A stretch of 41,720 nucleotides of DNA from Spirochaetota bacterium (GCA_050298055.1 JBNKTL010000046.1:1-41720), one strand, 5' to 3'. Counted from the first letter of the stretch, positions 1,314 through 24,447 are shown. Notes: generated by a model not told the origin, from the letters alone. Program-made: numbers and translations.

Positions 1314-1327
1314 TAAAATAATGTGAA

Positions 1328-3370: not shown

Positions 3371-3495
3371 CGACTCAGCTATGTATAAAATAATAAACAA
3401 AATACCTGATATGTGCCCGCCGCCTTCGGCGGCGGGCACATATTGTTGGTTTTTATATTATATATACATATTTTGCCATATAGCTGAGTAATTAC
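3367..3495. repeat. MITE/REP-like element with terminal inverted repeats and a central GC-rich palindrome (copy 1)
   Basis: Ends GTAACGACTCAGCTAT / ATAGCTGAGTAATTAC are inverted repeats (14/16). Central perfect 16-bp stem ATATGTGCCCGCCGCC-TTC-GGCGGCGGGCACATAT (3409-3443). Related copy at ~17264-17395. Confidence 0.65.
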
Positions 3496-3546
3496 AATAA
3501 AAATAAAAGTAATGACTTAGTAAGATATTGCGATTAAGGTGTTCCC

Positions 3547-4311
3547 ATGGATATTGTTCTTTTTATTGATGATGACCGGTCTTTTCTCGATGTTGTTGAG
3601 GCCCAGCTTTCCGGTAACAGTTTCAGGGTCTTCACCAGTACTTCGGGAAGTGAAGGCCTGAAAACCGCATCCTCGCTTAACCCGGACCTGATCATCTGCG
3701 ATATCCATATGCCGGGAATGGACGGCTTCGAAGTCCTGAAAAACCTCAGAAGGGACACTATAACAAAAACCATTCCCGTTATCATGCTTACGGGAATTAC
3801 CCATAAGGAAGCGCTCTACAAGGCAATGCGGTATAATATTGTGGATTATATCATAAAACCGTATAAACCCGATCTCCTGATAAAAAAAATGCACGCAGCA
3901 ATCCATTACAATAAATTAAAAAAGGAAAGGGAGATATCGGATGAGAGTGAACATCTCTTAATAAGCAGGGACACCGACTCTGTCATCATTTCATTTAACA
4001 CTCCCCTTAAATCGACAGGATTAATATCAGAAATTAAAAATGTTTTCAGCAGTTTTTTTCTCAGGTCACTTGCAGATAAAAAGTGCATTATTGACCTGCG
4101 GTCCCTTGACGAAATGGGGCCCGATGACACAAAAGTCCTGGGACTGGTAATAAAGCTCTTCGGGACCAGGGAACTTCTTATTATCGCGGGAAGGCATTAC
4201 GGTGAAATTGTAGCCAGTCCAAAACTCGATGACATTATCTTCGGTGAGACGACACATCTCTTCATCTCCTATGGAGACATGGAGATATTTCTCCAGAAAA
4301 AAGCAGGCTAA
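3547..4311 (+). CDS. Response regulator: N-terminal receiver with a possible STAS-like C-terminal domain
   Basis: VLFIDDD...LIICDIHMPGMDG...MLTG...YIIKPY receiver motifs. The C-terminal IIDLRSLDEMG pattern resembles STAS (inference). Confidence 0.85.
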   Translation: MDIVLFIDDDRSFLDVVEAQLSGNSFRVFTSTSGSEGLKTASSLNPDLIICDIHMPGMDGFEVLKNLRRDTITKTIPVIMLTGITHKEALYKAMRYNIVDYIIKPYKPDLLIKKMHAAIHYNKLKKEREISDESEHLLISRDTDSVIISFNTPLKSTGLISEIKNVFSSFFLRSLADKKCIIDLRSLDEMGPDDTKVLGLVIKLFGTRELLIIAGRHYGEIVASPKLDDIIFGETTHLFISYGDMEIFLQKKAG

Positions 4312-4372: not shown

Positions 4373-6010
4373 CTATTGACCCTGTGCCTCTCCTTCCGGC
4401 TCTACCAGTTTCGGCAGACAGTACTTGTCGATAATCTCATTCTGGTATTCACCCATCCACCGCGTGACCGGTATACACGATTCGATCTCCCGGTAGCTTT
4501 TGCCGAAGATGCCGAGCTTCATCATCTCATTGATGCATTTTGCGGCCCCTTCATATGCAACTTCCTTGGAACCGTTGAGTGTCTGTATGGTGAATTTCTT
4601 TGTGCTGTCACCATACATGAACGACCTCTCTGTCTTCAAAATCTTATCGATATTTGCCTGGGAGACAATCTCGTTAAGGGTTGTCAGTTTAAGTGTTTCA
4701 TTGGGATTATTGTTGTTAATGACCAGCCTGTTTTGAAAATCTTTGTGGATCTGGTCAGAGATAGTGCCGTCTTCATTTTTCACGTACCAGTTGTACCTGA
4801 TGTTCTTCCTGCAGAGTTTGGACTTGTAGTACATGTTCATGAGGTTGCGGTCCGCCCGCTCAATTTCAATGAGGAATTCCGCGTTGGAGTTGAGGATCTG
4901 CTTCTTCTCAAAGAGGGACATCTTCCGTTTCTCCTCTGTCCCGTCAGGTTTTTTATAGACCGAGAAAGTGTCCTGCGAGAGGCTGATCAGGTTCTGAAAC
5001 TGCGTGTTCTCTACCCAGGGAACAACCTCTATACTTGAGACCTTCCCGGTCCTCGGGTTCTGCATGGACATAAAGGCGTCCTTGATGGCAGCCTTGAATG
5101 TTTCAAGGTCATATGATATGATCGAAGCCTTTTCATTTTTCCCCAGGCCGAAGGCAAGGGTTGTAATGCTCAGGTGTTTGGACGCGACCTCCTCCTGGAA
5201 CTTCTCACTGAGCTTTTCACTCTCGGTCTTCTGTCCCGTCTGCCACTCCCTGTTATACTCGCCCGCAGCCCTGTTCCCGTATTTCCATTTGCTCGTATAT
5301 GCCCTGAAGCTCTTTATCTGGGTCTCAAGTTTACCTTCAAACTCAGAGTCGCTGTTCCTTTTCTCGGTTTTATATTCAAAAAAGGAGAGAAAAGTTGCCT
5401 TCCTTCCTATTGACCTCACATAGTATGGGCCGCAACTGTTGAAGAAACCGGGAATATCGTTATTGAGAAGGAGCTGTGATGCCGACTGGCTCATCTTTGA
5501 TTTGGCTTCATCCACTGAAGCATAGTAGCTGTAAATATCGATTGAAACGGTAATCACATGACTATAAAGGTCAACGGTGTCTACTGTTGTCTTTTTACCG
5601 ACCTTATTCTGCTGTTTCCTGATAATCTCCCTGTACTCAGAAGAACCGCTCCACTGTCCCCAGCCTTTCCAGGCCCAGGAGCCTAATTTCTTTGAGGTTT
5701 CCGTTCCCGGCCCTGCGGCCTCCTTTGTATCTCCCGACGTTGTGGCCCGTTTTTTCGTTGTATCTTCCATTGAAGTGAATTTATAGGTGAAGTCGTACGA
5801 GGGTTCGGTCAGTACAACATTTTCCAGGCAGGTTGACTGAAACGTATTGGACCCGATTGAGTACCCCCTGCCCAGGACAGGTGTGGCCAGTGTGTCCCGT
5901 ATCCTGCTGTCCTGGATAACCGTGGGCGCCGCGAAAATACTGCTTCCGGCTGCTGTTGTCACTATTACAGCAACGGCCAGTACTACTTTCTTCCCTTTCA
6001 TTCTTATCAT
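4373..6010 (-). CDS. Secreted MACPF-like family protein, paralog 1
   Basis: Signal peptide; TPVLGRGYSIGSNTFQSTC, FFNSCGPYYVRSIGR, AFGLGKNEKA, EVVPWVENT, KYCLP; six conserved Cys; RBS AAGGAG upstream. The CDS is solid; the fold assignment is inference. Confidence 0.7.
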   Translation of the reverse strand: MIRMKGKKVVLAVAVIVTTAAGSSIFAAPTVIQDSRIRDTLATPVLGRGYSIGSNTFQSTCLENVVLTEPSYDFTYKFTSMEDTTKKRATTSGDTKEAAGPGTETSKKLGSWAWKGWGQWSGSSEYREIIRKQQNKVGKKTTVDTVDLYSHVITVSIDIYSYYASVDEAKSKMSQSASQLLLNNDIPGFFNSCGPYYVRSIGRKATFLSFFEYKTEKRNSDSEFEGKLETQIKSFRAYTSKWKYGNRAAGEYNREWQTGQKTESEKLSEKFQEEVASKHLSITTLAFGLGKNEKASIISYDLETFKAAIKDAFMSMQNPRTGKVSSIEVVPWVENTQFQNLISLSQDTFSVYKKPDGTEEKRKMSLFEKKQILNSNAEFLIEIERADRNLMNMYYKSKLCRKNIRYNWYVKNEDGTISDQIHKDFQNRLVINNNNPNETLKLTTLNEIVSQANIDKILKTERSFMYGDSTKKFTIQTLNGSKEVAYEGAAKCINEMMKLGIFGKSYREIESCIPVTRWMGEYQNEIIDKYCLPKLVEPEGEAQGQ

Positions 6011-6083
6011 GATATCACTCCTTCTTGTTAAATAACAGCTCGCATATATCTTGTTAAATCATTTTTCCGCAAAAGACCCGTAA

Positions 6084-7529
6084 TCACTCTGCTTTCGGTT
6101 TTGCCAGTGTGGGCATACAGTAATCATCGATAACACTGTTGACCTTGGGAACAAACTTGTTCCTCAGCGCCTTGCATACGGGAATATCACGCCAGCTCTT
6201 TTTAAAGATCCCCTGGTTCATGATCTCCTTAATACACTGGGCGGCCCCGTCGTTTCCGTACATAAAATCCTCTTCATCCTGGTAGAGCCTTTCAATGGCT
6301 TCCGGACTGAGCTCCCTGTCCAGCTCCGCGATTTTCATTGTTTTGGGATACCTGTTGTTCTGAATATCAGCATCCTCAAGACCGGGCATAAACTTTCCTT
6401 CCCTCTTCCAGTTTGAATCAATAATGTTCCTGCATATCAAAGCCTTATAATAGAGGTCCGTAAGCGTACGGGCAGTCCTGTCAATTCTCGCGAGAAACTC
6501 GGCATTCAGGTTCAGGATATGCTTCTTTTCAAAGAGAAGGAGTTTCTTCCCCTTTTCATTCTCGGTATCTTCTTCCAGCTTGATAAAATTCTGGAACTCG
6601 GCATTTTCAACCCAGGGAACGATCTCCATGGTGGTGACCCTTCCTGTCATGGCATCCTGCATGGACATAAACGCGTCCTTGATTGCCGCTTTATATGTGG
6701 GCAGGTCATAGGCGATAAGTGTGGCATTCTCATTCTTCCCAAGGCCCCACGCCTTTGTGGTAATGGTGAGTTTTTTCTTCCGCGCCATGGATTCAAATGA
6801 GGATTTTACGCTTAAATTGAGTGACGCGCCTCCGCCTCCCATGACCTTCACAAGGGATGACCCGAAGCCCTTGATGGCCAGCTCAAGCTGCATCTCGAAC
6901 TCCTTGTTTCTTTCTGTACTTTCATCAAGGTAGGTAAAGATCGACACAAATTTCGCATTTCTTCCCAGTGACCGGATATAGTATGAACCGCAGCTGTGGA
7001 AAAAACCGGGAATGTCATTGTTCAGGAGGAGCGTCTTTGAAGCGTCACCGAGCCGGGTATTGCTCTCATCAACCGACGCATAGTAGGTGTCAACATTGAT
7101 GTCCACCCTTATGTTGTGATAGAACATCCTCTTACCCTCAACCGTTGTAGACGAACCGCTTGTCTTCACATCAAAGGCAAGATAGCTCAGGTCCACCTTC
7201 CCGCTCACAGTAGATGCCTTTTTCTCGGTGTCCTCTTTCTCCATGGATTTGAAGGTGTAGTCAAAGTCGTATGAGGGCTTGGTGATCTTGATGTCCTTCA
7301 TACACGTGGACTGGTAGGTATTTGTTGCCAGGGAATAGCCCCGGCCAAGTACCGGTGTTGTGGCAAGGTCCGAGATCCTGTTGTCCCGAATAATTGTGGG
7401 CCCTCCGGACAATCCGCCGTGCATTATTATAACAACTGAAGCAGTGAATAATATGATACTGAGTATGTTCTTTTTCATTAAATAATTCCCGGACTTGCGC
7501 TTTTTTTTATTTCCTGGATATATATTCAT
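6084..7529 (-). CDS. Secreted MACPF-like family protein, paralog 2 (alternative start 7478)
   Basis: Same motif series: TPVLGRGYSLATNTYQSTC, FFHSCGSYYIRSLGR, AWGLGKNE, EIVPWVENA, DYCMP; signal peptide from MKKNILS. Confidence 0.7.
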   Translation of the reverse strand: MNIYPGNKKKRKSGNYLMKKNILSIILFTASVVIIMHGGLSGGPTIIRDNRISDLATTPVLGRGYSLATNTYQSTCMKDIKITKPSYDFDYTFKSMEKEDTEKKASTVSGKVDLSYLAFDVKTSGSSTTVEGKRMFYHNIRVDINVDTYYASVDESNTRLGDASKTLLLNNDIPGFFHSCGSYYIRSLGRNAKFVSIFTYLDESTERNKEFEMQLELAIKGFGSSLVKVMGGGGASLNLSVKSSFESMARKKKLTITTKAWGLGKNENATLIAYDLPTYKAAIKDAFMSMQDAMTGRVTTMEIVPWVENAEFQNFIKLEEDTENEKGKKLLLFEKKHILNLNAEFLARIDRTARTLTDLYYKALICRNIIDSNWKREGKFMPGLEDADIQNNRYPKTMKIAELDRELSPEAIERLYQDEEDFMYGNDGAAQCIKEIMNQGIFKKSWRDIPVCKALRNKFVPKVNSVIDDYCMPTLAKPKAE

Positions 7530-7551
7530 TTATCCTCATTCCTGTTAAGCC

Positions 7552-9114
7552 CTATTTCCTCTTCCTCTCACTTGTCAGTATAGGCATGCAGTAATTTTCT
7601 ACTGTTTCATCTTCAGCGTTTGCCATCTTCTCAATAAGATCATTGCACTCCTTAAACTCCCTGTAGCTTACCCTGAAAATTCCGCTTCTCATGATCTTCT
7701 TCATACAGGCTGCCGCTCCGCCGCCCGATTCAGCACCCGGAACACCTGAACTGCCGTACATAAAGATCTTTTCCCTTTTGAGAAATCCGTCAATACGTTC
7801 ATCGGTCAATACCTGGTCCAGCTTTGAAAGCATGATGGTTTCACCTGTTCGGTTATTGAGGATTTTGCTGTTCCTGTACTCAGGTTTCAGACTACCACGG
7901 TTCTTATAGTTTATATCGATCTGCTGTTTGCATATCTTGGCTTTATAGTAGATATTCATCATGTTCCTGTCAGCCCTTTCGATCTCCGCCAGGAACTCCG
8001 CATTCTGGTTGAGGAGCTGCTTTTTCTCATAGAGGAGAAGCTTTCTTGTTTTTGTCTTTAGCGGGCCCCCTCCGGGAACTCCTTCTTCAGACTTTACTGC
8101 GGCTTCCGGTTCATCCTCATTGAGCTTTATAAGGTCCTGGAACTCGGTATTCTCAACCCAGGGAACAACTTCAATACTGGAAACTTTCCCCGTCCGGGGA
8201 TTCTGCATTGAGAGAAATGCGTCCTTTATTGCCGCCTTGAATGTATCGATGTCATAGGATATCAGGGTCGCCTTCTCGTTCTTCCCCAGGCCGAACGCGG
8301 CAACGGTAATTGTCAGCTGCCGTGACGACGCGTTCCTCCTGAATTCATAGCCGGCATGATCAACGGTTGAGACTGTTCTTTCGTTAGTAGTTTCACCCTC
8401 TTCACCGGCAGTCTCCTCTTCCCCTTCACCTTTATTCATTGTCTTTTCCATCTTCTTGCCAAAGCCCTTTATCTGCTCCTCAAGCTGAGTCTCAAACCGG
8501 GCGTCCGTGGTATCGGTCCGGGTCTTGTAGGTGAATATTGAAACGAACTTGGCGTTTCTCCCTATTGACCGGACATAGTATGAGCCGCAGCTTGAGAAAA
8601 AACCGGGCAGATCTTTATTCAGGATAAGCTGTGCCGCCGTGTTGCTCATCTTCGTATTGCTTTCATCAACCGACGCGTAGTATGAGTTCAGGTTTATAAC
8701 AACAAATATGTGATGTGAGAATGTCTTTGTTTCGGTTGTAACGGCCGAAGTTGTTGTCCTTGTACCGGTCCTCTCTTCGGTGGACTCTTCGGACTTTCCT
8801 TCACTGAAAACCTTGTTTTTCAGCTGGTTGCGGAACTCGCTGCTGAAAGACTTTGTGTCAATATAGCGGAGATCACTCTCTTTTTCAAGGGAGTCAAAGG
8901 TATAGGTAAAATCGTACGAGGGTTCAGTGAGTTTAATTCCCGTAAGGCACGTTGACTGGAAAGTATTGGTAGAGATGGAATACCCTCTCCCCAACACAGG
9001 GGTTGTTGCGATATTGGTGATCCTGTTGTCCTGGATGATCGTCGGGCCCGAATAGGCAATACCGGAAATAACCGGAATCGCAATAGCCGCAAGTACCTTT
9101 TTAATTTTTTTCAT
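7552..9114 (-). CDS. Secreted MACPF-like family protein, paralog 3
   Basis: Signal peptide; TPVLGRGYSISTNTFQSTC, FFSSCGSYYVRSIGR, AFGLGKNE, EVVPWVENT, NYCMP; acidic and Thr-rich inserts. Confidence 0.7.
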   Translation of the reverse strand: MKKIKKVLAAIAIPVISGIAYSGPTIIQDNRITNIATTPVLGRGYSISTNTFQSTCLTGIKLTEPSYDFTYTFDSLEKESDLRYIDTKSFSSEFRNQLKNKVFSEGKSEESTEERTGTRTTTSAVTTETKTFSHHIFVVINLNSYYASVDESNTKMSNTAAQLILNKDLPGFFSSCGSYYVRSIGRNAKFVSIFTYKTRTDTTDARFETQLEEQIKGFGKKMEKTMNKGEGEEETAGEEGETTNERTVSTVDHAGYEFRRNASSRQLTITVAAFGLGKNEKATLISYDIDTFKAAIKDAFLSMQNPRTGKVSSIEVVPWVENTEFQDLIKLNEDEPEAAVKSEEGVPGGGPLKTKTRKLLLYEKKQLLNQNAEFLAEIERADRNMMNIYYKAKICKQQIDINYKNRGSLKPEYRNSKILNNRTGETIMLSKLDQVLTDERIDGFLKREKIFMYGSSGVPGAESGGGAAACMKKIMRSGIFRVSYREFKECNDLIEKMANAEDETVENYCMPILTSERKRK

Positions 9115-9146
9115 ACTCTTCCCTGATTCACTTTCCTTATACTTAT

Positions 9147-10712
9147 TTAATCCAGAGGTACGGGCATGCAGTAGTAATCCACGGTTTCGTCCTCAACCTC
9201 TCCCATATGCGCCTGGAGGGCCTTGCATTCTTCATGCAGCCTGTAGCTTACGCTGAAGATCCCTTTATCCATTATGGTCTTTATGCAGGCAGATGCCCCC
9301 CCCTTGGGGACCTTGCATTCTTCATCACCACCTTCCTTCCCATACATAAAGCATCTCTCTTTCTTCAACAGGTTGTTTACCCTTTCTTCCGTTAAATACG
9401 TATCCAGTTCGGAAAGCTTTTTGAGGTCCCCTGTCTTATGGTTAGTCAGCAGAAGATTCTTTGCGTTATCAGTCAGGGCGCCGCCCTGCTTCCAGTTCCC
9501 ATCGATGTTCTTTCTGCAGAGACGCGCCTTATAGAACATGTTGAGAAGGTTCCGGTCAACCCTTTCTATCTCCATGAGAAATTCCGCGTTGAGGTTGAGG
9601 GTTATCTTTTTTTCATAGAGGACCTGCCCTTTTTTCACCAGTTTCTTTTTCGGTTCCTTTGTGGCAGGGTCGATGACCGGTTTCCCCTCCGCGTCCTTTT
9701 CCACGTCATAGACGTCTTCTGATTTTTCAAGCCCAACCAGCGCCTGGAATTCCGTGTTTTCAACCCAGGGAACAACCTCTATACTGACGACCTTTCCCGT
9801 CCTCGGATTTTGCATTGCCATGAAAGCGTCCTTAATGGCCAGCTTGAACGACTGAAGGTCATAGGAGATCAGGGTGGCTTTTTCATTCTTCCCCAAGCCA
9901 TATGCCGCGGTTGTTATGGTGAGGTTTGTCCGTGTGGCTTCACTGTTGAACTGCCGTGAATCGGTCTGCTCCTGTGTATCCTCAGAGGAACTGGTGGTGG
10001 TAGTGCTGCTTGTCCACCCCCAGCTTGTGCTGCTTGAGAACCTCTTCAGGGATGTCCTGAGCCGGGACTCAAAGGAGATGTCCCGGGACTCTGTTTCCGT
10101 CTGGTAGGAAAACCTCGATATCAGCCTCGCCTTCCTTCCGATAGACCTCACATAGTAGGGCCCGCAGCTCGAGAAGAAGCCGGGAAGGTCTTTTCTCTGG
10201 AGAAGGGTCATTGCCGAATTGCTCAACTGTGATCTTCCCTCGTCAAGAGACGCGTAGTATGAATAGAGGTCTATTGTTGCATAGAGATCGTGATTATAAT
10301 ATGTCCTGTTGTTCCTCACCGAAGTGGTTGATGATCTCTGGATGTCATAGGTCTGCCTGAATGTTGACTTGCTCCCGAATCCGAAAAATGACTTTCGTTT
10401 TGACCTGCTGTATGAACTGCTCTGACTTCTCGACGTGGCCTGGGTCCTGGAGGATGACTCCTTTCCCGCAACCTCCCCCGATTCAAAATAGTATTCCATA
10501 TCGTATGAGGGTTCCGTGAGGATAACCTTTTTCAGGCACGAGGACTGAAATGTGTTTGTCCCGATTGAGTATCCCCTCCCCAGAAGCGGGGTTGTTGCAA
10601 GGTCTGTTATCCGGTTGTCCCTGATAACCGTTGGCCCCGCACTGAGCTTTATGCTGACTGCCGCAACTGTGAAAATAAATAGACAGAGTAATGATTTCGT
10701 TAATAATCTCAT
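9147..10712 (-). CDS. Secreted MACPF-like family protein, paralog 4
   Basis: Signal peptide; TPLLGRGYSIGTNTFQSSC, FFSSCGPYYVRSIGR, AYGLGKNE, EVVPWVENT, YYCMP; long Ser/Thr inserts with SFFGFG and SWGW tips. Confidence 0.7.
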   Translation of the reverse strand: MRLLTKSLLCLFIFTVAAVSIKLSAGPTVIRDNRITDLATTPLLGRGYSIGTNTFQSSCLKKVILTEPSYDMEYYFESGEVAGKESSSRTQATSRSQSSSYSRSKRKSFFGFGSKSTFRQTYDIQRSSTTSVRNNRTYYNHDLYATIDLYSYYASLDEGRSQLSNSAMTLLQRKDLPGFFSSCGPYYVRSIGRKARLISRFSYQTETESRDISFESRLRTSLKRFSSSTSWGWTSSTTTTSSSEDTQEQTDSRQFNSEATRTNLTITTAAYGLGKNEKATLISYDLQSFKLAIKDAFMAMQNPRTGKVVSIEVVPWVENTEFQALVGLEKSEDVYDVEKDAEGKPVIDPATKEPKKKLVKKGQVLYEKKITLNLNAEFLMEIERVDRNLLNMFYKARLCRKNIDGNWKQGGALTDNAKNLLLTNHKTGDLKKLSELDTYLTEERVNNLLKKERCFMYGKEGGDEECKVPKGGASACIKTIMDKGIFSVSYRLHEECKALQAHMGEVEDETVDYYCMPVPLD

Positions 10713-10849
10713 TGGTAGACCCTTTTATTAGATATCGAATAACATACAAACAAGGAACAATACTATATGTATCAGTGAATAATACTTTTATACTTCAGCA
10801 GATAAATCAAGTACTTTTTCTTTCCACATAATGATAATTCAAAATCACT

Positions 10850-13429
10850 TTATTTCTCATCTCCGTTTCTCTTTATAAATTTCCCCTCTCCCGTGAGCCT
10901 GTTTTTCCTGAATTGACCTTCGTACCTGTCGCCGTCACTCCAGGTATATACACCTTTCCCTTCTCTTTTATTGTTCTTCCATTCACCCGAGTAAACATCA
11001 CCGTTTCTCCAGTAGAGTGTCCCCCTGCCGTTCCTGTTGTCCCCGGAAAACATTCCCTCAAAAACATCCCCGTTTCTCCACCTGTAGATCCCAAAACCCT
11101 CCCTTTTGTCATTCCTCCACTCACCGGTGAAGCTGTCCCCGTTGGGCCATCTCTGTGAACCCATTCCTTCTTTTTTCCCGTTTTTAAAAAGACCGGAATA
11201 CATGGTTTTGTCAGGATGCACAATTGTCCCTTCACCTTCCGCGTGTTTTCCCCTGGTCTCACCTGTATAGACGTTGCCATTCTTTTCAATGTATGTTGTG
11301 ACTTTATGCTTTTCTCCTTTAGTATAAGAAAGAACATCCAGCTGCTCCGGAGAGAGGGTCCTGTGGACCTTGAAGTATTCGATCCATGGCTCAAGGTAAA
11401 GCCTTACAGGTACGGCCTTCTCGTCACTTCTGAAGAGTTCAATGATCCTCTCCTTGTTTTTGAAAAAATTCTTAAGGGTTTTCGGCTCAAGAAGATTTTC
11501 TCCTTCTGAAAATGACGGGATCAGTCCGGATATGCATCCGCTTCCCTGTTGTGTGCCGGCGGGGACCTGTGTGAGCTTTTCCTTCATTGGTCCCGTTTTT
11601 GACAGGGCACCGGCACCCTGTTTTTCCGGGATACCATATGGTTTTATTTCAATGTCATCGCCACTCTTATTAAAAGAAAAATAGTAAACAAATCCCCTTC
11701 TGTGCTTTACCTGGCTTACATAGTGAGTTCCGCACCTGGCGTAAAATCTGTTTATGTTTTCCTTTGCCAGTTTCTCCGCTTCCTTTGTAAGTTTAAATCC
11801 CGTTGCAAGCTTCCGCGAATAGCCCCCGATCTCCAGGAACCCGCGGTAGCGCACCCTCTCCGGTTCGGGCTTTTTCCAGAAGAGAAAAATTCTCTTCCAG
11901 AGAGGCCGCCGGATTACTTCATGGGGAGTGTAGCTGCCGATTACCCGGAAGTCTCGTGAAGAATCTGTCTCAACGGGTTTTACCGATTTTGCATCCATAC
12001 ACATTCCGGGATAGACTTTTCCGGTCATATCCATCTGCTGCCCCAGTTTAACAGGTCCCGGAACATTTTCAGTCTGCTCATGGTCTGAATACCTGTAGCC
12101 GGTATATTCCCTGTCAATTGACTCCGGGTCTGCCACAAGAAACTGTGTCAGCTGAACAGGTCTGTGGGTCTCCTTCCACATCTGCGGCATATCCCTTTCT
12201 ACCGAAACAGGCAGATTTTTGCATGAGCTGCTGCTGTCAATCATTCTGGTAAAATCGATGATAACGCTGCACTGGGGGATCTCCATGAGAGAGATTGACC
12301 TGTCATCCGAAGCTTTATTATAACACCTGTTATACTGGTCACGGTTAACCCAGTTTCTCGCCTCGATCATCTCATCGAGACAATCATAAACAAAAATCCT
12401 TTCTTTTCTGTCCCTGACCTTTTCCGCGGTCCTTTTTACCTGGTAATATTTAATGTTGAAGTTTCTCAGAGATGTTTCAAGAGCATTCAGTGACTTGAAG
12501 ATAGACTCATCCGATGATTCTGAAAGTTTAATAAAGCTTTTATCCATTCCAAATTTCTTCATCGGTCCGAACTGCTTCCAGGGCATGGTTTCATAACCTG
12601 TGATTTCTCCCTTGCCGGAATTGAGCAGTGAATGGATTGCCCTGTTGAGAAATCCGCTCACATCCTCCCCGTACTTTTTTCTCAGGGGGAACTCAGCCGG
12701 GTCGAAAAAATAATCGGTCCCCACGTCCAGTGAAAAATAGGTATCATGTGAAGAAGGGAGGTCCCGGAAAATTCCCGCCTGCAGGCTGTTCTCCGGGACT
12801 TCAGTGATCCTTTTCCTGATTATTTCTTTCACCCTGTCTTCTTCCTTCCCCGGAGCAACATAATAGGCAACAAAGAGCTTGATCCGGGAATTGTACCGGG
12901 TTGAATAGACATAATCGGTACCGCAGGCCTCAAAGAACCTGTTGATATCACCTGTTTTAATAATATCATTTACATAAGAAAGAAATTCCGCTCTTTCTTC
13001 CGATATGACCGAGTACCGGTTTTTGAGTTTAACGACAATGAGGAAGGAGACCTGTTTTTTTTTCTGAAGATTAAATTCCGCGGACCTCTTCAGACTCTCC
13101 CTGACAAAAAATTCTGTTCTCCTGTTTTTACTTTTAAAATCTTTGTGGACCCGGTGAAATTCAAAAGTAAGCTCCCCTCCCCGTGTTTCACTCTTAACAT
13201 GCGAAAGGCAGGTCTTGGGAAGGTAACCGGAACCTGTGTACTTGAGGCCGGTTCCTATAAAGTTCGCTTCATCAAAGATATAGGGGATTTTTTCAGCCGA
13301 GTGGAGTACCGGTTTCCACTTAAAGGATTTACAACCGCTTGAAACCAGCAGGAGAAACACAAATACGAGTTGCGGATATATTTTTAAGAGAATGCCGGAT
13401 ATGGTTTTTCCTGAAATCATTGCGCACAA
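10850..13429 (-). CDS. Lipoprotein with two tandem diverged MACPF-like domains and C-terminal MORN repeats (start possibly 13420)
   Basis: Lipobox LLLVSSGC. Domain 1: IGTG...KTCL...RFFEACGTDYV...ETMPW. Domain 2: LGQQM...GMCM...RFYARCGTHYV...LEPWIE. About six MORN repeats at the C-terminus. Confidence 0.7.
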   Translation of the reverse strand: MCAMISGKTISGILLKIYPQLVFVFLLLVSSGCKSFKWKPVLHSAEKIPYIFDEANFIGTGLKYTGSGYLPKTCLSHVKSETRGGELTFEFHRVHKDFKSKNRRTEFFVRESLKRSAEFNLQKKKQVSFLIVVKLKNRYSVISEERAEFLSYVNDIIKTGDINRFFEACGTDYVYSTRYNSRIKLFVAYYVAPGKEEDRVKEIIRKRITEVPENSLQAGIFRDLPSSHDTYFSLDVGTDYFFDPAEFPLRKKYGEDVSGFLNRAIHSLLNSGKGEITGYETMPWKQFGPMKKFGMDKSFIKLSESSDESIFKSLNALETSLRNFNIKYYQVKRTAEKVRDRKERIFVYDCLDEMIEARNWVNRDQYNRCYNKASDDRSISLMEIPQCSVIIDFTRMIDSSSSCKNLPVSVERDMPQMWKETHRPVQLTQFLVADPESIDREYTGYRYSDHEQTENVPGPVKLGQQMDMTGKVYPGMCMDAKSVKPVETDSSRDFRVIGSYTPHEVIRRPLWKRIFLFWKKPEPERVRYRGFLEIGGYSRKLATGFKLTKEAEKLAKENINRFYARCGTHYVSQVKHRRGFVYYFSFNKSGDDIEIKPYGIPEKQGAGALSKTGPMKEKLTQVPAGTQQGSGCISGLIPSFSEGENLLEPKTLKNFFKNKERIIELFRSDEKAVPVRLYLEPWIEYFKVHRTLSPEQLDVLSYTKGEKHKVTTYIEKNGNVYTGETRGKHAEGEGTIVHPDKTMYSGLFKNGKKEGMGSQRWPNGDSFTGEWRNDKREGFGIYRWRNGDVFEGMFSGDNRNGRGTLYWRNGDVYSGEWKNNKREGKGVYTWSDGDRYEGQFRKNRLTGEGKFIKRNGDEK
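10853..11300 (-). repeat. MORN repeat region (~6 units of 23 aa)
   Basis: Units such as NGDSFTGEWRNDKREGFGIYRWR / NGDVFEGMFSGDNRNGRGTLYWR / NGDVYSGEWKNNKREGKGVYTWS. Confidence 0.9.
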
Positions 13430-13440
13430 TTGAAAATGAT

Positions 13441-15096
13441 TTACCGTTTGATATCTTCATTCATATCTTCAAGGCTTTTGGGAGGCTCCTTATTTTCCTC
13501 TTTCATTTCCTCTTTATTTTTTTTATCCATGAGGTCTTTCAGGGAATCCGGTTTTATCTTCTCTTTGTCTTTGTCACCGGTCAGGTTGACATCCGATTTT
13601 GTACCCGTTTTCTCTTTTACGTCCGGCTCCTTTTTCTCCTTCTGGTAAACGATCTTTGACGGTTTTGGCATGCAGTACTGGTCAAGAAAGTTTGTCCCGA
13701 GCCTGTTATACTTCATTGCTTTTACACAGCTCGGGATTCTCCGGTAATCCGCTTTATCAAGCCCTGTCTCATATATTTTATTGATACAGTCAAGGGCCCC
13801 GTCATTCTTACCTTGGATACCGTAAAGAAACTCCCTGTTTTTTCTGAGAATATCGTCCGGAGGATTTTTCGCGAAGTATCTTATGAATTCATCAATGGAT
13901 ATAAAAAGGTCTTTATCGTTTTCATTTGACTGGTTGTAGAACAGGGTCCTGTCCATGTCATATTTTATGACCTTCTGTTCAATGAGTTCCGTGAGGGTGG
14001 TAAATTTTTTCTCCTTTGTTTCAAGGCCCAGCCAGCTGTCATACTTCTGCCTGCTCTCCCTGTCCACATAGTTCTCATAAAGATGCTTCCTGCACATGCC
14101 GGCCTTGTAAAACTGTTCAACCTGCTGTGTGCTTATTCGGTTTATCTCTTTAATGACCCCTGTATTTGCTTCCAGTTTCTGCTGGCGTATAAACTGTCTT
14201 TCTCCCTCCTTTACATCCTTTCCGATAAAAGAAACAAGTTCGGGATTCTCTATCCAGGGGACGATCTCGATACTGCTTATGACACCGGAATTGGGGTCCT
14301 GCATCAGCTTTACCGCGTCCTGTATTGTCTGCCTGAACTGTTCAATATCAACAGGAATGAGGTTAACCATGTTACCCTTGGAGAGGCCCACACCCTTTAT
14401 ATAAACCCTGAGCCCCCTGTACTCCGCGTCATCGGTAAACTCCTTCCCCGGCTTTCCCTTGCCCTGAAAGTTGAAGAGTCCCTTTTCAAGGTTTTTTTTA
14501 AATTCCCCATCCTTTTCATTATCATCGGACTGCCTGTACTGGAGGAGGGCCACATAGGTGGAAAAGCTCCCCACAGCCCTGACATAGTGGTGGCCGCAGC
14601 TGTTGAAAAACGCCACATACTGCTTCCTCTCCAGCAGCTGTCTCACACTTTTACTGAGCTGTGAACTGGTTTCGTCAAGGGCATAGTAGTATGATTTGAT
14701 CTCCAGGTTCACCAGGAGGTTTTGAAGATGATACGTATTCCCCCCGGCGGATTCCCGCTCCGAATAGTACTTTTTAAGGAACTGGGTCAGGTTTGCCTTA
14801 CTGAGCCTGTCCTTCCCGGAAACAGAGATGTTCTTAAAAAAGTCACTGTTGATAACCGTAAGCTCATAATCGAGATCAAAGGTGGGCTTTGTCTTTACAA
14901 TTTTTTCAAAACACATGGACTGCAGCCTGTTGCTGTATATGGAGTAGCCGCGGCCGATAGTGGGAAACCCGTTAAGGTTTTCTATCCTGTTGTCTTCGAT
15001 GACCTTTGGTGATCCTTCCAGCAAACCGGAAGAAACAGCAGCAATAAAGAGAGATATCAGCAATATGGCGAGATTTTTTTTTCTAGTTATATGCAT
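13441..15096 (-). CDS. Secreted MACPF-like family protein, divergent paralog with a charged C-terminal tail
   Basis: Signal peptide; FPTIGRGYSIYSNRLQSMC, FFNSCGHHYVRAVGS, GVGLSKG, EIVPWIENP, QYCMP; six conserved Cys; K/E-rich tail. Confidence 0.68.
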   Translation of the reverse strand: MHITRKKNLAILLISLFIAAVSSGLLEGSPKVIEDNRIENLNGFPTIGRGYSIYSNRLQSMCFEKIVKTKPTFDLDYELTVINSDFFKNISVSGKDRLSKANLTQFLKKYYSERESAGGNTYHLQNLLVNLEIKSYYYALDETSSQLSKSVRQLLERKQYVAFFNSCGHHYVRAVGSFSTYVALLQYRQSDDNEKDGEFKKNLEKGLFNFQGKGKPGKEFTDDAEYRGLRVYIKGVGLSKGNMVNLIPVDIEQFRQTIQDAVKLMQDPNSGVISSIEIVPWIENPELVSFIGKDVKEGERQFIRQQKLEANTGVIKEINRISTQQVEQFYKAGMCRKHLYENYVDRESRQKYDSWLGLETKEKKFTTLTELIEQKVIKYDMDRTLFYNQSNENDKDLFISIDEFIRYFAKNPPDDILRKNREFLYGIQGKNDGALDCINKIYETGLDKADYRRIPSCVKAMKYNRLGTNFLDQYCMPKPSKIVYQKEKKEPDVKEKTGTKSDVNLTGDKDKEKIKPDSLKDLMDKKNKEEMKEENKEPPKSLEDMNEDIKR

Positions 15097-15209
15097 ATGG
15101 TTTTAAAGCTGCAACTACCTGAATGATGAGGTAAAACTCTCCTTCCTCCCTCTCTCTTAAGCGCCCGGGAGAGGAGTGTCGGGCCGGAACAGGTTATCCA
15201 TTAATAAAA

Positions 15210-15686
15210 TCAGTTGGAAATATAAATCCCTGAACCTATCCACCAGGAGTTATTGACCTTATGAACATAGCCCAGTTTCGGTTCAATCCTCTTGGTCTTC
15301 GGGTGGAACCACTTATATTTTATCCACCCGCTTCCTTGTCTCCTGACGATTTTCACCATCTCCTGAACAATGAGCTTACCTGTGGGGTCCTTCAATTCAC
15401 TGAAGTTATTGCCAACCCACTTCGGATTGGCGCCATGAGCAATGACCCTGCACGAATAGTCGTAGCCGAATATATAGAGCTCACCGCGGTTATAAAGACC
15501 GCTCTTATCATGAAACTCTTCCACGGCCTTCTCCCTGCCGTATATTTTTATAAATGCCAGGGCTTCCTTTACAAATCCCACAAGCTCTTCTTTGGTGACT
15601 TTTTTCCCATATTTTGGATTATATCGTGCATCGCTGAAGGTTGTTGCAAAGAGAACGATCAGCAGAATAAATGTCAAACTTCTCAT
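15210..15686 (-). CDS. Stand-alone exported single Cache-domain protein
   Basis: ATG at 15686 preceded by GAAGGAG; signal peptide; GELYIFGYD...IAHGANP...KDPTGK...GSGWIKYKW.HP...PKLGY...WWIGSGIY, typical of single Cache domains. Confidence 0.85.
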   Translation of the reverse strand: MRSLTFILLIVLFATTFSDARYNPKYGKKVTKEELVGFVKEALAFIKIYGREKAVEEFHDKSGLYNRGELYIFGYDYSCRVIAHGANPKWVGNNFSELKDPTGKLIVQEMVKIVRRQGSGWIKYKWFHPKTKRIEPKLGYVHKVNNSWWIGSGIYISN

Positions 15687-15713
15687 TTTGACTCCTTCAA
15701 TAATAATTATTGA

Positions 15714-15746
15714 AACCGGCCCATGGATGGACATGATGCCGGTTTG
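15714..15746 (-). terminator. Possible terminator/hairpin downstream of the first array gene
   Basis: AAACCGGC...GCCGGTTT inverted repeat with inner CATG/CATG pairing, just after the stop of 15783..17216. Confidence 0.45.
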
Positions 15747-15782
15747 ATTTAATGAACCAATTAAAACAAAACAGAGTTTCCC

Positions 15783-17216
15783 TTATTGTTTGGGTGGTTT
15801 CTCAGGTTCCGATTTCGGTTTGGCAAGCTGGGGCATGCAGAAATTATCAATCTTCTCATTCATGACTGCTGACATCTTGCTCCGCATATCCCGGCACTCC
15901 TTTATATCACGCCAGCTAATTGTGAACATACCCGATTCAAGAAGCTTCTCAATGCACACATTTGCTCCCTTACCCTGGCCGCCACCACCGCCGCCGCCGC
16001 CGGTGCCGCCGGATGCCTTACCATACATAAACATTTCCTCATCAGTAAGCAGTTTGTCTACACTGGCATCGGAAAGCATTTTATCAAGCTCGCCAAGCTG
16101 CATGGTTTCATTGGGGAACTTGTTATTTACAAGTATAGCGGCGGTATAATTGGGATGCAGCTTGTCACCCTTATACCAGTTGGCCCTGATATCCTGCTGA
16201 CAGATCTTTGCCTTGTAGAATATATTCATGAAGTTCCTGTCTGCCCTTTCCAGTTCGGCAAGGAACTCGGCGTTTAGATTCAGAATATGCTTTTTCTTGT
16301 AAAGGAGCATGGGCTTCCCCCCGGTTGCAGGGTCCGGGACCTCCTTTTCAAGCTTGATCAATGACTGGAATTCAGTATTCTCCACCCAGGGAACAATCTC
16401 CATGGATGTGACCTTTCCTGTCATGGGGTTCTGCATTGAGATAAAGGCATCCTTGATGGCCGCTTTGAATGTTTCCAGATCGTAGGATATAAGAGTTGCG
16501 CCCTCGTTCTTCCCGAGGCCATAGGCATTTGTGGTAATTGTAAGTTTCTTATTAGATGCCTGCTGCGAAACACTGGATGATATGGCGCTCCTGGACCCGC
16601 CCTCAACTCCGAAAGCCTTTACTGACATTTCAAGGGCAGCCTCAAATGCGGCATCCTTTGTCTCCTCAACGCTTGTATAACTGAATATTGAAACGAACTT
16701 CGCGTTCCTGCCCAGGGACCTGACGTAATATGATCCGCAGCTTGAAAAGAAACCGGGAATATCGTTGTTGGTAAGGAGCATCCCCGCGGAAGAACTCATC
16801 TTGGACTTGGCCTCATCAACAGAGGCATAGTAGGTGTCCATGTTGATCTCAACATAGATATGGTGAAAAAACTCCTTTTTACCGCTGGCGTAGGTAAACT
16901 TCTGGCTCATGTCCACGGAGATCCCCATATACCCGGCACTTGCACCAGTCTCCTGGGACGTACTTGTTGCTGTTGACTTTGATGATTCAACCGATTCAAA
17001 GACATAGGTAAAATCATAAGAGGGATCGGTCACAACAATATCATCAAGGCACTTGGACTGGAAGGTGTTTGTCACAATTGTATATCCCCTTCCCAGGGTG
17101 GGAGTCATTGCTATATCGGTAATTCTCTTGTCCCTGATTATCGTCGGCCCTGCAAATACACTGGCGGCAATTACAGTAATAAGAAAAACAGATATTAGGC
17201 TGATTACTCTTTTCAT
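15783..17216 (-). CDS. Secreted MACPF-like family protein, first gene of the array
   Basis: Signal peptide (ASVFA|GPT); TPTLGRGYTIVTNTFQSKC, FFSSCGSYYVRSLGR, AYGLGKNE, EIVPWVENT, NFCMP; poly-Gly loop. Confidence 0.7.
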   Translation of the reverse strand: MKRVISLISVFLITVIAASVFAGPTIIRDKRITDIAMTPTLGRGYTIVTNTFQSKCLDDIVVTDPSYDFTYVFESVESSKSTATSTSQETGASAGYMGISVDMSQKFTYASGKKEFFHHIYVEINMDTYYASVDEAKSKMSSSAGMLLTNNDIPGFFSSCGSYYVRSLGRNAKFVSIFSYTSVEETKDAAFEAALEMSVKAFGVEGGSRSAISSSVSQQASNKKLTITTNAYGLGKNEGATLISYDLETFKAAIKDAFISMQNPMTGKVTSMEIVPWVENTEFQSLIKLEKEVPDPATGGKPMLLYKKKHILNLNAEFLAELERADRNFMNIFYKAKICQQDIRANWYKGDKLHPNYTAAILVNNKFPNETMQLGELDKMLSDASVDKLLTDEEMFMYGKASGGTGGGGGGGGQGKGANVCIEKLLESGMFTISWRDIKECRDMRSKMSAVMNEKIDNFCMPQLAKPKSEPEKPPKQ

Positions 17217-17733: not shown

Positions 17734-18063
17734 ATGAAGAAAACAGTTTCGGTCCTCCTTCTCTTTGCTGTGACAACCATCATCTCCTGCAAAAAGAGTG
17801 TTGATTTAAGCGGAAAATATCGAAAAGCATCGGGGGATTACAGGTATGACATAATCATTTTTGAAAAAGCCGGGGGAGACAAATATAATATTACCGGTTA
17901 TACCGATGAAGTAAAAAAATTCAGCACAACAGGCAAATTGAAGGATAATGAGATTGAGATGGGATGGATGTCCAGACTTACTTTTAAAGAGGACTTTAAT
18001 CAGTTTTATCTCCATTCGGGCAAAGGAAGTGTCTACATTAAGGATAACACAGGTAAAAAATAA
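17734..18063 (+). CDS. Small lipoprotein, probably beta-rich
   Basis: MKKTVSVLLLFAVTTIISC lipobox; alternating beta-strand pattern; resembles 23301..23681. Confidence 0.8.
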   Translation: MKKTVSVLLLFAVTTIISCKKSVDLSGKYRKASGDYRYDIIIFEKAGGDKYNITGYTDEVKKFSTTGKLKDNEIEMGWMSRLTFKEDFNQFYLHSGKGSVYIKDNTGKK

Positions 18064-18134: not shown

Positions 18135-19412
18135 TTATCGCTCCGGTCTCCCCAAAACATTCAGGACCCTCCAGACCTTGCCGTCACATACCAGGGTAAC
18201 ACCTTCATCCTTTACAATCTCAAGCTTTTTTGATCTGAGCCTTATCTTCTGGGAGGCAAGAATAAAATCACCTTCAATGGTCATAACGGAATCACCGGTG
18301 TTAAAAACATGAAGGACCTGCCCGTCAACCCCCTTACTGAATCCCCTGACCCTCTTTGTTTTTTCCGCAAAGATTATCCCGATACCGGTTACATCAAAAT
18401 TCAGAAGTTCACTCCCCCTGAAGGTCATGCTTCGAAGAACAAATGCGCCGGTTTTCAGATCGGTTGCCACTTCAACATGCATGCTCTTAAAGTTTTTGGC
18501 CTGGTTAACAAACCTCTCTTTATTGTTCAGGATGTTCCTGTCCCTGACTTTGTTCTTTCCTTCTATACTGAAGATTCTTCGTGAATTTTTCTCCGAGGTC
18601 ACCCTGTTCCTCTTTATTTCCTCCTGTCTCCTTTTATCGGCATTCTTGATGATCTTAATATCAAGACTGTTTTCCCCGGTTACTTCCCTCAAGAGTTGTA
18701 TCATGCCGGAATTTTTTCTGATCCCATGCACATTCTCCTCTCTGTTGTTGATGATATTCTCAATCTCCTTATCAGCCAGTCCGGGCTCTCCCTTTTCTCC
18801 CCGTGGACCTCTCTCACCTTTCTCTCCCTGAACTCCCGGAAATCCCCGGGGACCGCGCTCTCCCCGGGGACCGCGTTCACCCCTCTCGCCTTTAACTCCG
18901 GGGTATCCCTGGGAACCTTTTTCTCCCCGGGGACCTCTCTCACCTTTCTCTCCCTGAACTCCCCGGTCTCCTTTCTCACCCTTCTCACCTTTCTCCCCGG
19001 GAAGGCCCCGGTCTCCTTTCTCGCCTTTCTCGCCTTTCTCCCCGGCAGGACCCAGGTCTCCCTTTTCTCCTTTATCACCCTTGAAGCCGGGTCTTCCCGT
19101 AAAACCCTGGATACCCCGCTCACCTCTTTCACCCTGCTGCCCCCCGGGGCCTCTGTCACCTTTTTCACCTTTCTCACCGGGAGGACCCTGTTCACCTTTC
19201 TCGCCCTTTTCCCCTTTTTCACAGGGACAGTCACTTTCATTACGAGAACCGGGTTTCTTCCCCGTATCGAACATCCCGGCAAAGACTCTCATACTATCAT
19301 AACTATTGTCAAAACCGGGTAAATGCTTCTGCATGTTTACCGGAAGGGCATAACAGAGAGTTATAAGCAGAATCGTAAAGAACAGGTCACTGTTGAGCAG
19401 ATGTTTTTTCAT
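18135..19412 (-). CDS. Exported collagen-like protein (Cys motif, Gly-X-Y, coiled coil, C-terminal beta domain)
   Basis: Hydrophobic N-terminus, DCPC motif, ~49 uninterrupted GXY triplets, an Asn/Ile heptad-like neck, then a ~110-aa beta-rich head. Confidence 0.88.
   Translation of the reverse strand: MKKHLLNSDLFFTILLITLCYALPVNMQKHLPGFDNSYDSMRVFAGMFDTGKKPGSRNESDCPCEKGEKGEKGEQGPPGEKGEKGDRGPGGQQGERGERGIQGFTGRPGFKGDKGEKGDLGPAGEKGEKGEKGDRGLPGEKGEKGEKGDRGVQGEKGERGPRGEKGSQGYPGVKGERGERGPRGERGPRGFPGVQGEKGERGPRGEKGEPGLADKEIENIINNREENVHGIRKNSGMIQLLREVTGENSLDIKIIKNADKRRQEEIKRNRVTSEKNSRRIFSIEGKNKVRDRNILNNKERFVNQAKNFKSMHVEVATDLKTGAFVLRSMTFRGSELLNFDVTGIGIIFAEKTKRVRGFSKGVDGQVLHVFNTGDSVMTIEGDFILASQKIRLRSKKLEIVKDEGVTLVCDGKVWRVLNVLGRPER
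18774..19214 (-). repeat. Collagen Gly-X-Y repeat tract
   Basis: GEK/GER/GPR/GDR triplets with 9-nt periodicity; the block GVQGEKGERGPRGEK occurs twice. Confidence 0.95.
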
Positions 19413-23691: not shown

Positions 23692-24447
23692 CTATTTGCT
23701 CTTCTTCCCCAGGGCCCGGTCCAGGAGCATCATATCGGAACCGCTCAGGAACGTGCCGTCATCAATATAGAAGGCAGGGACACCGTCAATGCCCAGGAGG
23801 TCCGAAAGAGAGTTTCCCCTGTGAAACGCCTTCTTTCCTTCGCTGCACTGGTACTGCGCCGTGTCCTTTGACTTCTTCCAGTCAGGCTTGCTGTATTCTT
23901 CAAAAGTCAACTTCCTGCAGACTGCCTCTATTGATTTGGCCTTTCCCTGCTCACCGTGAACGGTTACCAGGATAAAGTTGAAAACCACACCATGTTTATC
24001 AGCAAGGCCCTTTACGCTCTTGATCGCCCCGTTGCAGAAACCGCAGAGGGGATCGGTAAACATGTAGACCGACCTGCCTTTCTTTACCTGCGGTATGTAG
24101 GAAAAAGAGACTGCCTTTTTTATGCTCTCCATGTTCTTCTTAAAATTTCCCGCCTTGATACTATTGATGGTCTCCTCTGTGAGTTTCTCACCTTCTTTGT
24201 AAAGGTTACCCGTCAGGACAAAGTCCTTTCCGGCATAGAGGGGGATGAGCTGATCGTTGAAATTGATTATTATCTCGCACAGGCCCCTGACCGGTTTTTT
24301 TGATACGATGCTGAAATTTCGAACGGGAAGATGCTTTTTAATAAACCCACTATCTATCCCCGAACAGAGATCATCCGCATTTATTGTCCCGGAATGAAAA
24401 AAGATAACTGCCATAAGTATTGTAAATGCTAAGAGTCTGTATTTCAT
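23692..24447 (-). CDS. DsbC/DsbG-like periplasmic thiol:disulfide isomerase
   Basis: Signal peptide, N-terminal dimerisation-like domain (GLCEI...LYAGKDFVLTGNLY), FTDPLCGFC active site, GIDGVPA cis-Pro loop. Confidence 0.82.
   Translation of the reverse strand: MKYRLLAFTILMAVIFFHSGTINADDLCSGIDSGFIKKHLPVRNFSIVSKKPVRGLCEIIINFNDQLIPLYAGKDFVLTGNLYKEGEKLTEETINSIKAGNFKKNMESIKKAVSFSYIPQVKKGRSVYMFTDPLCGFCNGAIKSVKGLADKHGVVFNFILVTVHGEQGKAKSIEAVCRKLTFEEYSKPDWKKSKDTAQYQCSEGKKAFHRGNSLSDLLGIDGVPAFYIDDGTFLSGSDMMLLDRALGKKSK

Follow-up and report, generated by a model that had tools for sequence, protein, structure and literature searches.

The 41,720-nucleotide stretch of DNA analysed here, from a Spirochaetota bacterium (GCA_050298055.1, JBNKTL010000046.1:1-41720; henceforth the window), carries on its minus strand, at positions 4373 to 17216, a cassette of eight co-directional open reading frames (ORFs). 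Seven of these, lettered A to G from the upstream end, form a new sequence family within the superfamily of membrane attack complex/perforin proteins and cholesterol-dependent cytolysins (MACPF/CDC), and at least six distinct paralogous subunit types have been retained together as orthologs over deep divergence. A first-pass annotation of the window had described seven co-directional paralogs sharing one domain. The seven family members are there, but the run is one gene longer, the eighth encoding a small protein of the sCache_2 family that is not a paralog. The common domain is recognisable by sequence identity in six of the seven, A, B, D, E, F and G, whereas C is related to them only through profile methods and has an incomplete motif set.

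A, D, E, F and G share 44-52% pairwise identity, and B is 29-31% identical to these five. The ordered motifs listed in the first-pass annotation (P..GRGY..QS.C, YYA..DE, FF.SCG.YY.R, GLGK, E.VPW.EN and C.P) all proved to be invariant or nearly invariant columns in alignments of the six paralogs and of 56 family members. Mature A, B, E, F and G have a set of exactly six cysteines, which align with one another across the five proteins. Export signals had been ascribed to every protein in the array: the N-termini of the six paralogs are indeed of Sec type, judged by eye, with a basic segment, a hydrophobic stretch and a conserved mature start, G-P-T-I-I, while C instead has a lipobox, the cysteine of which (Cys33) is shared by 16/16 orthologs. 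B ends in a long tail, rich in Lys, Glu and Asp and of low complexity in orthologs, that finishes with S-[FL]-[ED]-D-[LMIF], which might be a docking or sorting peptide. Several repeats of this motif are present in one other locus (L013).

A HMMER search of 1.84 billion cluster representatives recovered 568 at E ≤ 1e-3, which excludes a chance origin of the family, and 221 at E ≤ 1e-30. All named homologs are labelled "hypothetical protein", as neither Pfam nor NCBIfam detects the family; for the seven window proteins NCBIfam returned nothing and Pfam only the MORN repeats of C. PF01823 (MACPF) had no match in a search of the genome, and a six-frame genome search with PF01289 at E ≤ 0.01 found none either, as was also the case for 14 control genomes. 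Among 31 distant family members scanned with Pfam, none matched MACPF or Thiol_cytolysin at E ≤ 0.01; a SPOR domain was found in one and a solute-binding domain in two. The six-paralog profile, compared with all PDB sequences, gave only two chance matches (E 2.3). PADLOC returned nothing for 13 proteins of the locus, and thus no sign of a known anti-phage system. Our literature search found no published description of this protein family. The supplement text of PMC7527733 contains none of the names Leptospira, Spirochaete, Myxococcus or Bdellovibrio, and its list of about 300 CDC-like proteins (CDCLs; Fig. S4) may overlap with the family.

Structures were predicted for A and C. For A, an AlphaFold2 model drawing on 56 sequences has a mean predicted local distance difference test score (pLDDT) of 82.1 and a predicted template modelling score of 0.73, and contains a bent central antiparallel β-sheet flanked by two helical clusters, which correspond to the transmembrane hairpin regions TMH1 and TMH2 of the superfamily. 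All 50 matches listed by Foldseek against the PDB are MACPF/CDC proteins, with E values from 1.7e-4 to 1.3e-2. An independent search of 48,161 chains placed pneumolysin (9.3), a Gram-negative CDC (8.2), CDCL-long (7.9), stonustoxin (7.6) and MPEG-1 (7.5) at ranks 1-5, and the neighbours by protein language model included clusters with some MACPF or Thiol_cytolysin members (scores 0.90-0.94). The MACPF-like fold proposed by the first-pass annotation is borne out by these searches. Within the superfamily, the closest solved structures belong to CDC and CDCL proteins and not to classical MACPF proteins. The C-terminal domain of A is helical in the model and drew only generic helical-bundle matches in the structure search.

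The secondary structure elements of the A model follow one another in a familiar order. A strand (residues 66-76) leads into a poorly modelled variable region (77-112) and a long strand (113-133) ending at the invariant Y129-Y130, followed by helices at 142-160. The second half comprises a long strand (163-182) bearing [L/I]168-G169-R170, two helices within 183-225 and a strand at 226-232, and the core closes with G233-L-G235-K, a short strand (240-244) and a helix (247-261). In the model this order would correspond to domains 1-3 of a CDC: strand 1, TMH1, strand 2, the domain 1 (D1) excursion, strand 3, TMH2 and strand 4, continuing with the glycine turn, strand 5 and the helix of the alpha-beta loop. 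CDCs and CDCLs share the motif F/Y-F/Y-Xn-YGR, which reads F230-Y231-X41-Y273-G-R in perfringolysin O (PMC7527733). The pattern [FY][FY]-x30-45-[LIVY]-G-R is present in five of the seven window proteins (A, D, E, F and G), with L or I replacing the tyrosine of YGR, 37 residues between Y-Y and [LI]-G-R, and both motifs on the long strands of the model. From their order, spacing and secondary structure, we infer that YY...[LI]GR is equivalent to the CDC/CDCL motif. B has V-G-S at the YGR position, and G-L-G-K takes the place of the CDC/CDCL glycine pair G-G. The CDC undecapeptide pattern was absent from all seven proteins.

The two regions that become membrane hairpins in the MACPF/CDC fold have distinctive properties. 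TMH1 is Ser/Thr-rich and hypervariable between paralogs, and residues 79-95 of A fall below a pLDDT of 50; TMH2 appears in the soluble model of A as helices 189-200 and 209-222, between strands 3 and 4. Among A, D, E, F and G, identity drops to 17% in TMH1 and 29% in TMH2, compared with 58-75% in the core and 39-45% in the C-terminal domain. Periodicity of the β type (i, i+2), scored as z > 1.64 against shuffled sequences, was detected in TMH2 of 68% and TMH1 of 34% of the 56 family members, but in only 0-7% for five control regions of the same proteins; α-type periodicity in the hairpin segments (4-7%) was not enriched. B has the weakest signal (z 1.1 and 0.4, below the threshold), and its hairpin regions are short and conserved. 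Judged by sequence periodicity, then, the two regions bear the amphipathic signal expected of hairpins in most subunits, B and C being the exceptions.

The lengths of these regions are characteristic of each orthogroup and are kept across genomes. TMH1 and TMH2 measure about 36 and about 43 residues in orthogroup A, a constant 36 and 52-54 in F, 37 and 40-60 in B, 38-52 and 49-69 in E, 50-73 and 51-76 in D, and 64-69 and 65-70 in G. At matched core identity (60-70%), hairpin regions are 31% identical between ortholog pairs and 21% between paralog pairs.

C is a predicted lipoprotein. It retains only FFxxCGT and PW of the motif set, and its relationship to the other six was seen only with hmmsearch (E 3e-11) and hhalign (97.6%, E 3.6e-12, 234 columns). 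It contains a second, partial copy of the core, which aligns with the first by hhalign (93%, E 3.5e-7, 146 columns). The AlphaFold2 model (pLDDT 77.5) has a helical middle region besides the two cores and a MORN domain, the latter matching Pfam at E 1e-30 and present in 9/16 orthologs. The segments equivalent to TMH1 and TMH2 lack a β-amphipathic signal (12% of 16 orthologs). Since a word-based search with C returned four close relatives, the ortholog set was drawn from the family loci instead; and a structure search with the C model covers no second core, as MORN matches fill the list. In the closest relative the C ortholog is divided between two ORFs of 436 and 407 amino acids (L001:13703-16233), through a frameshift, an assembly error or a true split.

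The stretch RFYARCGTHYV, which the first-pass annotation had compared with the MACPF signature, lies in this second, internal, degenerate copy of the domain in C. One of the 16 C orthologs (L004) matches the Pfam MACPF profile at the GTHY stretch with 24.0 bits (E 5e-5; cut-off 21.5); four further orthologs match at E 0.04-0.14, below the cut-off. Because the L004 ortholog passes the profile exactly there, we regard the GTHY motif as a true relic of the MACPF signature. The counterpart of the signature reads C-G-T-H-Y in C and C-G-x-[YH]-Y-x4-G-[RS] in the six paralogs. A profile of the second core searched against the PDB matched astrotactin-2, a MACPF protein, over the signature region, at a non-significant E of 0.76.

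Scanning 185,579 species genomes yielded 36 loci, in metagenome-assembled genomes (MAGs) labelled Spirochaetota/Leptospirales, Myxococcota, Bacteriovoracaceae/Oligoflexia, one Methylococcales and one "Deltaproteobacteria". The survey of synteny and copy number suggested by the first-pass annotation revealed conserved multi-gene arrays. A-B-C followed by D and more paralogs, with F last of the core run, is the arrangement in L001, L003/L017, L004, L005 (cut), L007/L011, L008, L010 and L012. F is the sixth family member and G the last in the window itself, extra copies (x8, x9) follow the Cache gene in L017 and L011, and L014 has the same gene set with two blocks swapped. A, B, D, E and F, assigned by tree, occur together with C in six complete or nearly complete Spirochaetota-type arrays (window, L001, L003/L017, L004, L007/L011 and L014). 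L008, L010 and L012 show B to F and are truncated at A or short of it; L005 breaks off after D. Three Myxococcota loci (L021, L022, L028) have the A-B-C trio only, and the Bacteriovoracaceae and Oligoflexia loci L031-L033 hold single copies or pairs. Two genomes have an extra ORF between C and D, of 710 amino acids (L003:11299-13431/L017:2741-4873) or 580 amino acids (L007:15791-17533/L011:2944-4686), which resembles no gene of the window and could encode a further component.

A tree of 74 proteins (IQ-TREE, LG+G4, quick search; long branches flagged for some B-type rows) resolved orthogroups B, F, G, E, D and A with Shimodaira-Hasegawa-like approximate likelihood ratio test (SH-aLRT) support of 100, 100, 98, 97, 95 and 92, each with members from several genomes. 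The B clade unites all 13 proteins found at position 2 with one Methylococcales copy, which lies away from that position. The G clade, sister to D, joins G of the window to the position 5 proteins of L017 and L011, and the tree contains further variable extra groups. The genome that holds the window has an eighth, solo family copy on another contig (G000 C76:6500-7828, minus strand, 442 amino acids), which clusters with orthogroup A and another solo copy (L016). The family is rare: with the family profile at E ≤ 1e-10, 3/41 related genomes were positive, namely the window's own and two of 24 from the same family, with none among 16 from other families of the order, and 3/301 genomes in an even sample of the phylum carry it. 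Carriers in both sets always have several copies.

Two additions to the B-type proteins bear on localisation. A PG_binding_1 domain is inserted in those of two Myxococcota MAGs (L021:2279-3970 and L022:1610-3292; 2/15 B orthologs), and the Methylococcales copy (L027:6334-8415; 1/15) ends in a SPOR domain. These domains hint at a periplasmic, peptidoglycan-associated location.

Features of the cassette and its associated neighbours are collected in Table 1. Gaps between cassette genes are 11-137 bp; terminators in a scan were at chance level (17 against 16.8 expected), with no clear internal one on the minus strand. A search of sequencing runs found no RNA run holding the stretch, and four DNA runs from two studies that do.

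Table 1 Coordinates of the cassette, its predicted domains and associated neighbouring genes
Feature	Position	Strand	Description
Paralog A	15783-17216	-	477 aa; ORF, AlphaFold2 model, fold matches, orthogroup A in tree
Parts of A			Signal peptide 1-22; MACPF/CDC-like core 23-290; helical C-terminal domain 291-477 with four invariant Cys
TMH1 of A, predicted first membrane hairpin	16881-16988	-	Residues 77-112
TMH2 of A, predicted second membrane hairpin	16542-16670	-	Residues 183-225
Small exported single-Cache protein, not a paralog	15210-15734	-	174 aa; Pfam sCache_2, E 2e-20; start probably internal Met17
Paralog B	13441-15096	-	551 aa; most divergent of the six paralogs
C-terminal tail of B	13441-13650	-
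Protein C, lipoprotein	10850-13429	-	859 aa; two degenerate MACPF/CDC-like cores and MORN repeats
First core copy of C	12530-13297	-	Residues 45-300
Second, partial core copy of C	11315-11989	-	Residues 481-705; F-Y-A-R-C-G-T-H-Y-V and second PW motif
MORN-repeat domain of C	10850-11314	-	Residues 706-859
Paralog D	9147-10712	-	521 aa; long Ser/Thr-rich TMH regions; orthogroup D
Paralog E	7552-9114	-	520 aa; orthogroup E
Paralog F	6084-7529	-	481 aa; orthogroup F
Paralog G	4373-6010	-	545 aa; longest TMH regions; variable extra orthogroup, sister to D
Small lipoprotein	17734-18063	+	109 aa; lipobox I-I-S-C; divergent from A
Collagen-repeat protein	18135-19412	-	425 aa; Pfam Collagen, E 7e-27; directly upstream of A
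Exported thioredoxin-fold protein, DsbC-like	23692-24447	-	C-G-F-C; weak Pfam Thioredoxin_2 match

Several neighbours recur with the cassette. The small Cache protein lies inside it or at its end in seven of ten distinct arrays (window, L001, L017, L011, L008, L010 and L012). A second small sCache_2 protein (169 amino acids) adjoins a HtrA/DegP-type protease with two PDZ domains elsewhere in the window (25678-27657, minus strand), so the pairing of a periplasmic Cache protein with exported machinery recurs there. The collagen-repeat protein, which is exported and has about 150 residues of G-x-y repeats and a C-terminal half without a family, stands directly upstream of A in five of ten arrays (window, L001, L003, L007 and L014) and may belong to the system; in L004 a weaker match lies on the other strand at a distance of about 9 kb. 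A DsbC-like C-G-F-C protein is encoded within a few kb of the cassette in six arrays (window, L001, L004, L008, L010 and L012) and is a possible folding helper for the six-cysteine paralogs. The small lipoprotein has homologs beside A in L001 and L014, making three arrays with the window, and is a candidate accessory or immunity protein only. A 602-amino-acid membrane protein (19504-21312, minus strand) weakly matches TMEM260-like (O-mannosyltransferase-like) proteins (E 5e-5), and L001 has a homolog at the corresponding position; O-glycosylation of the Ser/Thr-rich hairpin regions of D and A is pure speculation.

What the cassette does has to be read by analogy with known pores. We put the probability at about one half that it encodes a many-component pore whose subunits cooperate in the manner of the membrane attack complex (MAC) or CDCLs, with C, perhaps together with B, as a platform and a membrane, probably that of another bacterium, as the target. 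A, B, D, E, F and G would be exported by the Sec pathway, each with a CDC-type core in which the bent β-sheet is accompanied by two helical clusters able to refold into hairpins, and with a presumed disulfide-bonded helical domain C-terminal to the core. C would be a membrane-anchored lipoprotein in which two degenerate cores without hairpin-like segments are joined to MORN repeats. Such a non-inserting platform, perhaps shared with B, could nucleate or control assembly, and the hairpin-bearing A, D, E, F and G would then assemble into a β-barrel pore in the target membrane. It is from these parallels that we infer pore formation and co-assembly, as well as what each subunit does and which target is attacked. 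The missing hairpin signal in B and C is what would be expected of non-inserting platform subunits, and another cell is the likely target given the accessory, cross-phylum distribution, which includes predatory lineages.

A bolder version of the many-component pore, which we consider possible but doubtful, holds that at least six MACPF/CDC-like subunit types are recruited in an order nucleated or gated by C, that they build an irregular, giant hetero-oligomeric β-barrel against other cells, and that the system has an origin separate from those of the animal MAC and the CDCLs. C would then combine two dead pore domains with a membrane-binding MORN module, and the users would be environmental spirochaetes, myxobacteria and bdellovibrio-like bacteria. 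The irregular giant barrel is suggested by hairpin lengths that are fixed for each subunit type.

Several observations weigh against a cooperative pore aimed at other cells. At E ≤ 1 the seven window proteins have no match to Pfam MACPF or Thiol_cytolysin, and none contains the strict MACPF signature, (Y/W)-G-(T/S)-H-(F/Y)-x6-G-G. Sec signals lead only as far as the periplasm, and the cassette shows no sign of a secretion system. The peptidoglycan-binding domains in 3/15 B orthologs, together with SPOR and solute-binding fusions in distant members, mean that the proteins could stay in the envelope of the producer. The variable extra copies (G, x8, x9 and the solo copy on C76) would fit a repertoire of toxins equally well.

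That last point leads to an explanation we consider unlikely: the genes would encode independent, homo-oligomeric pore toxins with their own target ranges, the array would reflect nothing but tandem duplication, and C would be an immunity decoy like BcdI or CD59. Single copies and pairs in L031-L033 are as expected of proteins that act alone, as are the lineage-specific extras x8 and x9, the second type at position 5 and the C76 solo copy. Seven full-length CDCLs are found in one Chitinophaga strain (PMC7527733), and a surface lipoprotein confers immunity to a CDCL (PMC11169675), a part that C, lacking amphipathic hairpin segments, could play. However, toxins diversifying by target sit uneasily with paralogs whose divergence is concentrated in the hairpins (17-29% identity) while the presumed receptor-binding C-terminal domain is better conserved (39-45%). 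The same orthogroups are moreover kept together across deeply divergent genomes with little turnover, and A keeps its partners B and C even in Myxococcota.

The localisation evidence could also be taken at face value, with the proteins forming a periplasmic machine directed at the producer's own envelope: a large channel or scaffold, built into either the outer or the inner membrane, that would serve secretion or uptake, the release of vesicles or a regulated lysis. The restriction to Sec or lipoprotein signals without dedicated secretion genes in the cassette, PG_binding_1 in 2/15 and SPOR in 1/15 B orthologs, the SPOR and periplasmic solute-binding fusions of distant members, and the recurrence of DsbC-like and periplasmic Cache proteins nearby all point this way. 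We nonetheless judge it improbable, as the rare, patchy occurrence (3/41 relatives, 3/301 phylum genomes) across phyla is the pattern of an accessory weapon, and we know of no characterised MACPF/CDC protein that is a resident channel of its producer. Less probable again is that the fold serves a non-lytic role, in adhesins or binding proteins, or that the resemblance is spurious. The six paralogs have no Pfam or PDB sequence match, and astrotactin is an example of a non-lytic MACPF protein. Yet four lines of evidence agree on the fold, namely two structure searches, the language-model neighbours, the Pfam MACPF hit in a C ortholog and the order and spacing of motifs, and the β-amphipathic signal is specific to the pair of regions that in this fold form hairpins.

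The closest known system is that of the Bacteroidota CDCLs (EaCDCL, BfCDCL). Two- and three-component CDCL pores that assemble like the MAC have already been described, CDCL-long recruiting many CDCL-short subunits (PMC11169675), and CDCLs are activated by proteases and blocked by a lipoprotein immunity factor (PMC11169675, PMC11952106). The first-pass annotation had taken a multi-subunit pore of this kind to be possibly undescribed in this lineage; since the Bacteroidota CDCLs have been described, the principle of a MAC-like bacterial pore is not new, although the family itself was not found in the literature. Both systems are bacterial, and in both, neighbouring paralogous genes encode non-cholesterol proteins of the MACPF/CDC superfamily (PMC7527733, PMC11169675, PMC11952106). 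Both have, if the motif equivalence is right, F/Y-F/Y-Xn-[Y/L/I]GR followed by a glycine turn, and both have a C-terminal domain unrelated to CDC domain 4, paralogs on separate branches and a lipoprotein. The differences are considerable. CDCLs were collected by their match to the PF01289 profile and their components carry lipoprotein (SpII) signals (PMC11169675), whereas none of the seven cassette proteins matches PF01289 at E ≤ 1 and only C is a lipoprotein. Six conserved orthogroups with variable extras replace the two or three genes of a CDCL locus, the tandem degenerate cores and MORN repeats of C have no CDCL counterpart, and the hosts are Spirochaetota, Myxococcota and Bdellovibrionota MAGs instead of Bacteroidota. 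The novelty lies in the protein family, in how many subunit types are conserved and in a lipoprotein with tandem domains.

Like the complement MAC (C6, C7, C8alpha, C8beta and C9), the cassette keeps several ancient MACPF paralogs as distinct orthologs, with hairpin length and polarity varying by subunit type and some subunits appearing not to insert. The relationship is one of superfamily only: the cassette lacks TSP, LDLRA and EGF modules and a C5b-like platform, as well as the strict signature, and hetero-oligomerisation, proven for the MAC, is putative here. With CDCs such as pneumolysin and perfringolysin O the cassette proteins share, if our mapping is right, the order of strand, TMH1, YY strand, D1 excursion, GR strand and TMH2. 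They differ from CDCs in lacking the immunoglobulin-like domain 4, the undecapeptide and a PF01289 match, in having Gram-negative-type hosts and several components, and in their longer hairpin regions (31-98 residues). Plu-MACPF, the Bacteroides BSAPs and BT_3439 are likewise bacterial, and some of these single-component MACPF proteins are antibacterial; they match Pfam MACPF and act alone, whereas the cassette comes as a conserved multi-paralog set in a genome without PF01823.

Other features lie elsewhere in the window. Immediately next to the cassette, on the plus strand (3-4311), is a two-component block made up of a 436-amino-acid ORF that matches nothing in Pfam, a hybrid histidine kinase containing receiver and histidine phosphotransfer domains, and a response regulator whose output domain is unassigned. 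The block converges on the G end of the cassette and is not conserved at other loci. A perfect hairpin with an 18-bp stem (3407-3445) follows the kinase gene. The minus strand at 27766-31116 carries a flagellar basal-body cluster (FlgG-like rod protein, FlgA, FlgH L-ring, FlgI P-ring and FlgJ-like rod-binding protein), in which an L-ring gene is of possible interest for a spirochaete-like genome. At 32257-35951 the GC content is low (0.32-0.39); the genes there include one resembling HNH_2 endonucleases and one for an AAA_14/DUF4143 ATPase, and the region is possibly a small islet of mobile or defence genes.

Pores built from several MACPF/CDC paralogs were long thought unique to animal complement, and it was not until 2024 that bacteria joined the list, through CDCLs of two and three components. 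If the many-component pore is real, its six to seven conserved subunit types would make it the most complex bacterial system of its kind, standing out by hairpins whose length is set by subunit type and by a lipoprotein in which the core occurs twice in degenerate form. A family name could now be assigned to the 568 clusters at 50% identity, and the size of the cassette permits expression and reconstitution. It would offer a tractable model for the evolution of ordered hetero-oligomeric pores from a homo-oligomeric ancestor, for the nucleation or capping of assembly by subunits that do not insert, and for the uses of large pores in environmental and predatory bacteria.

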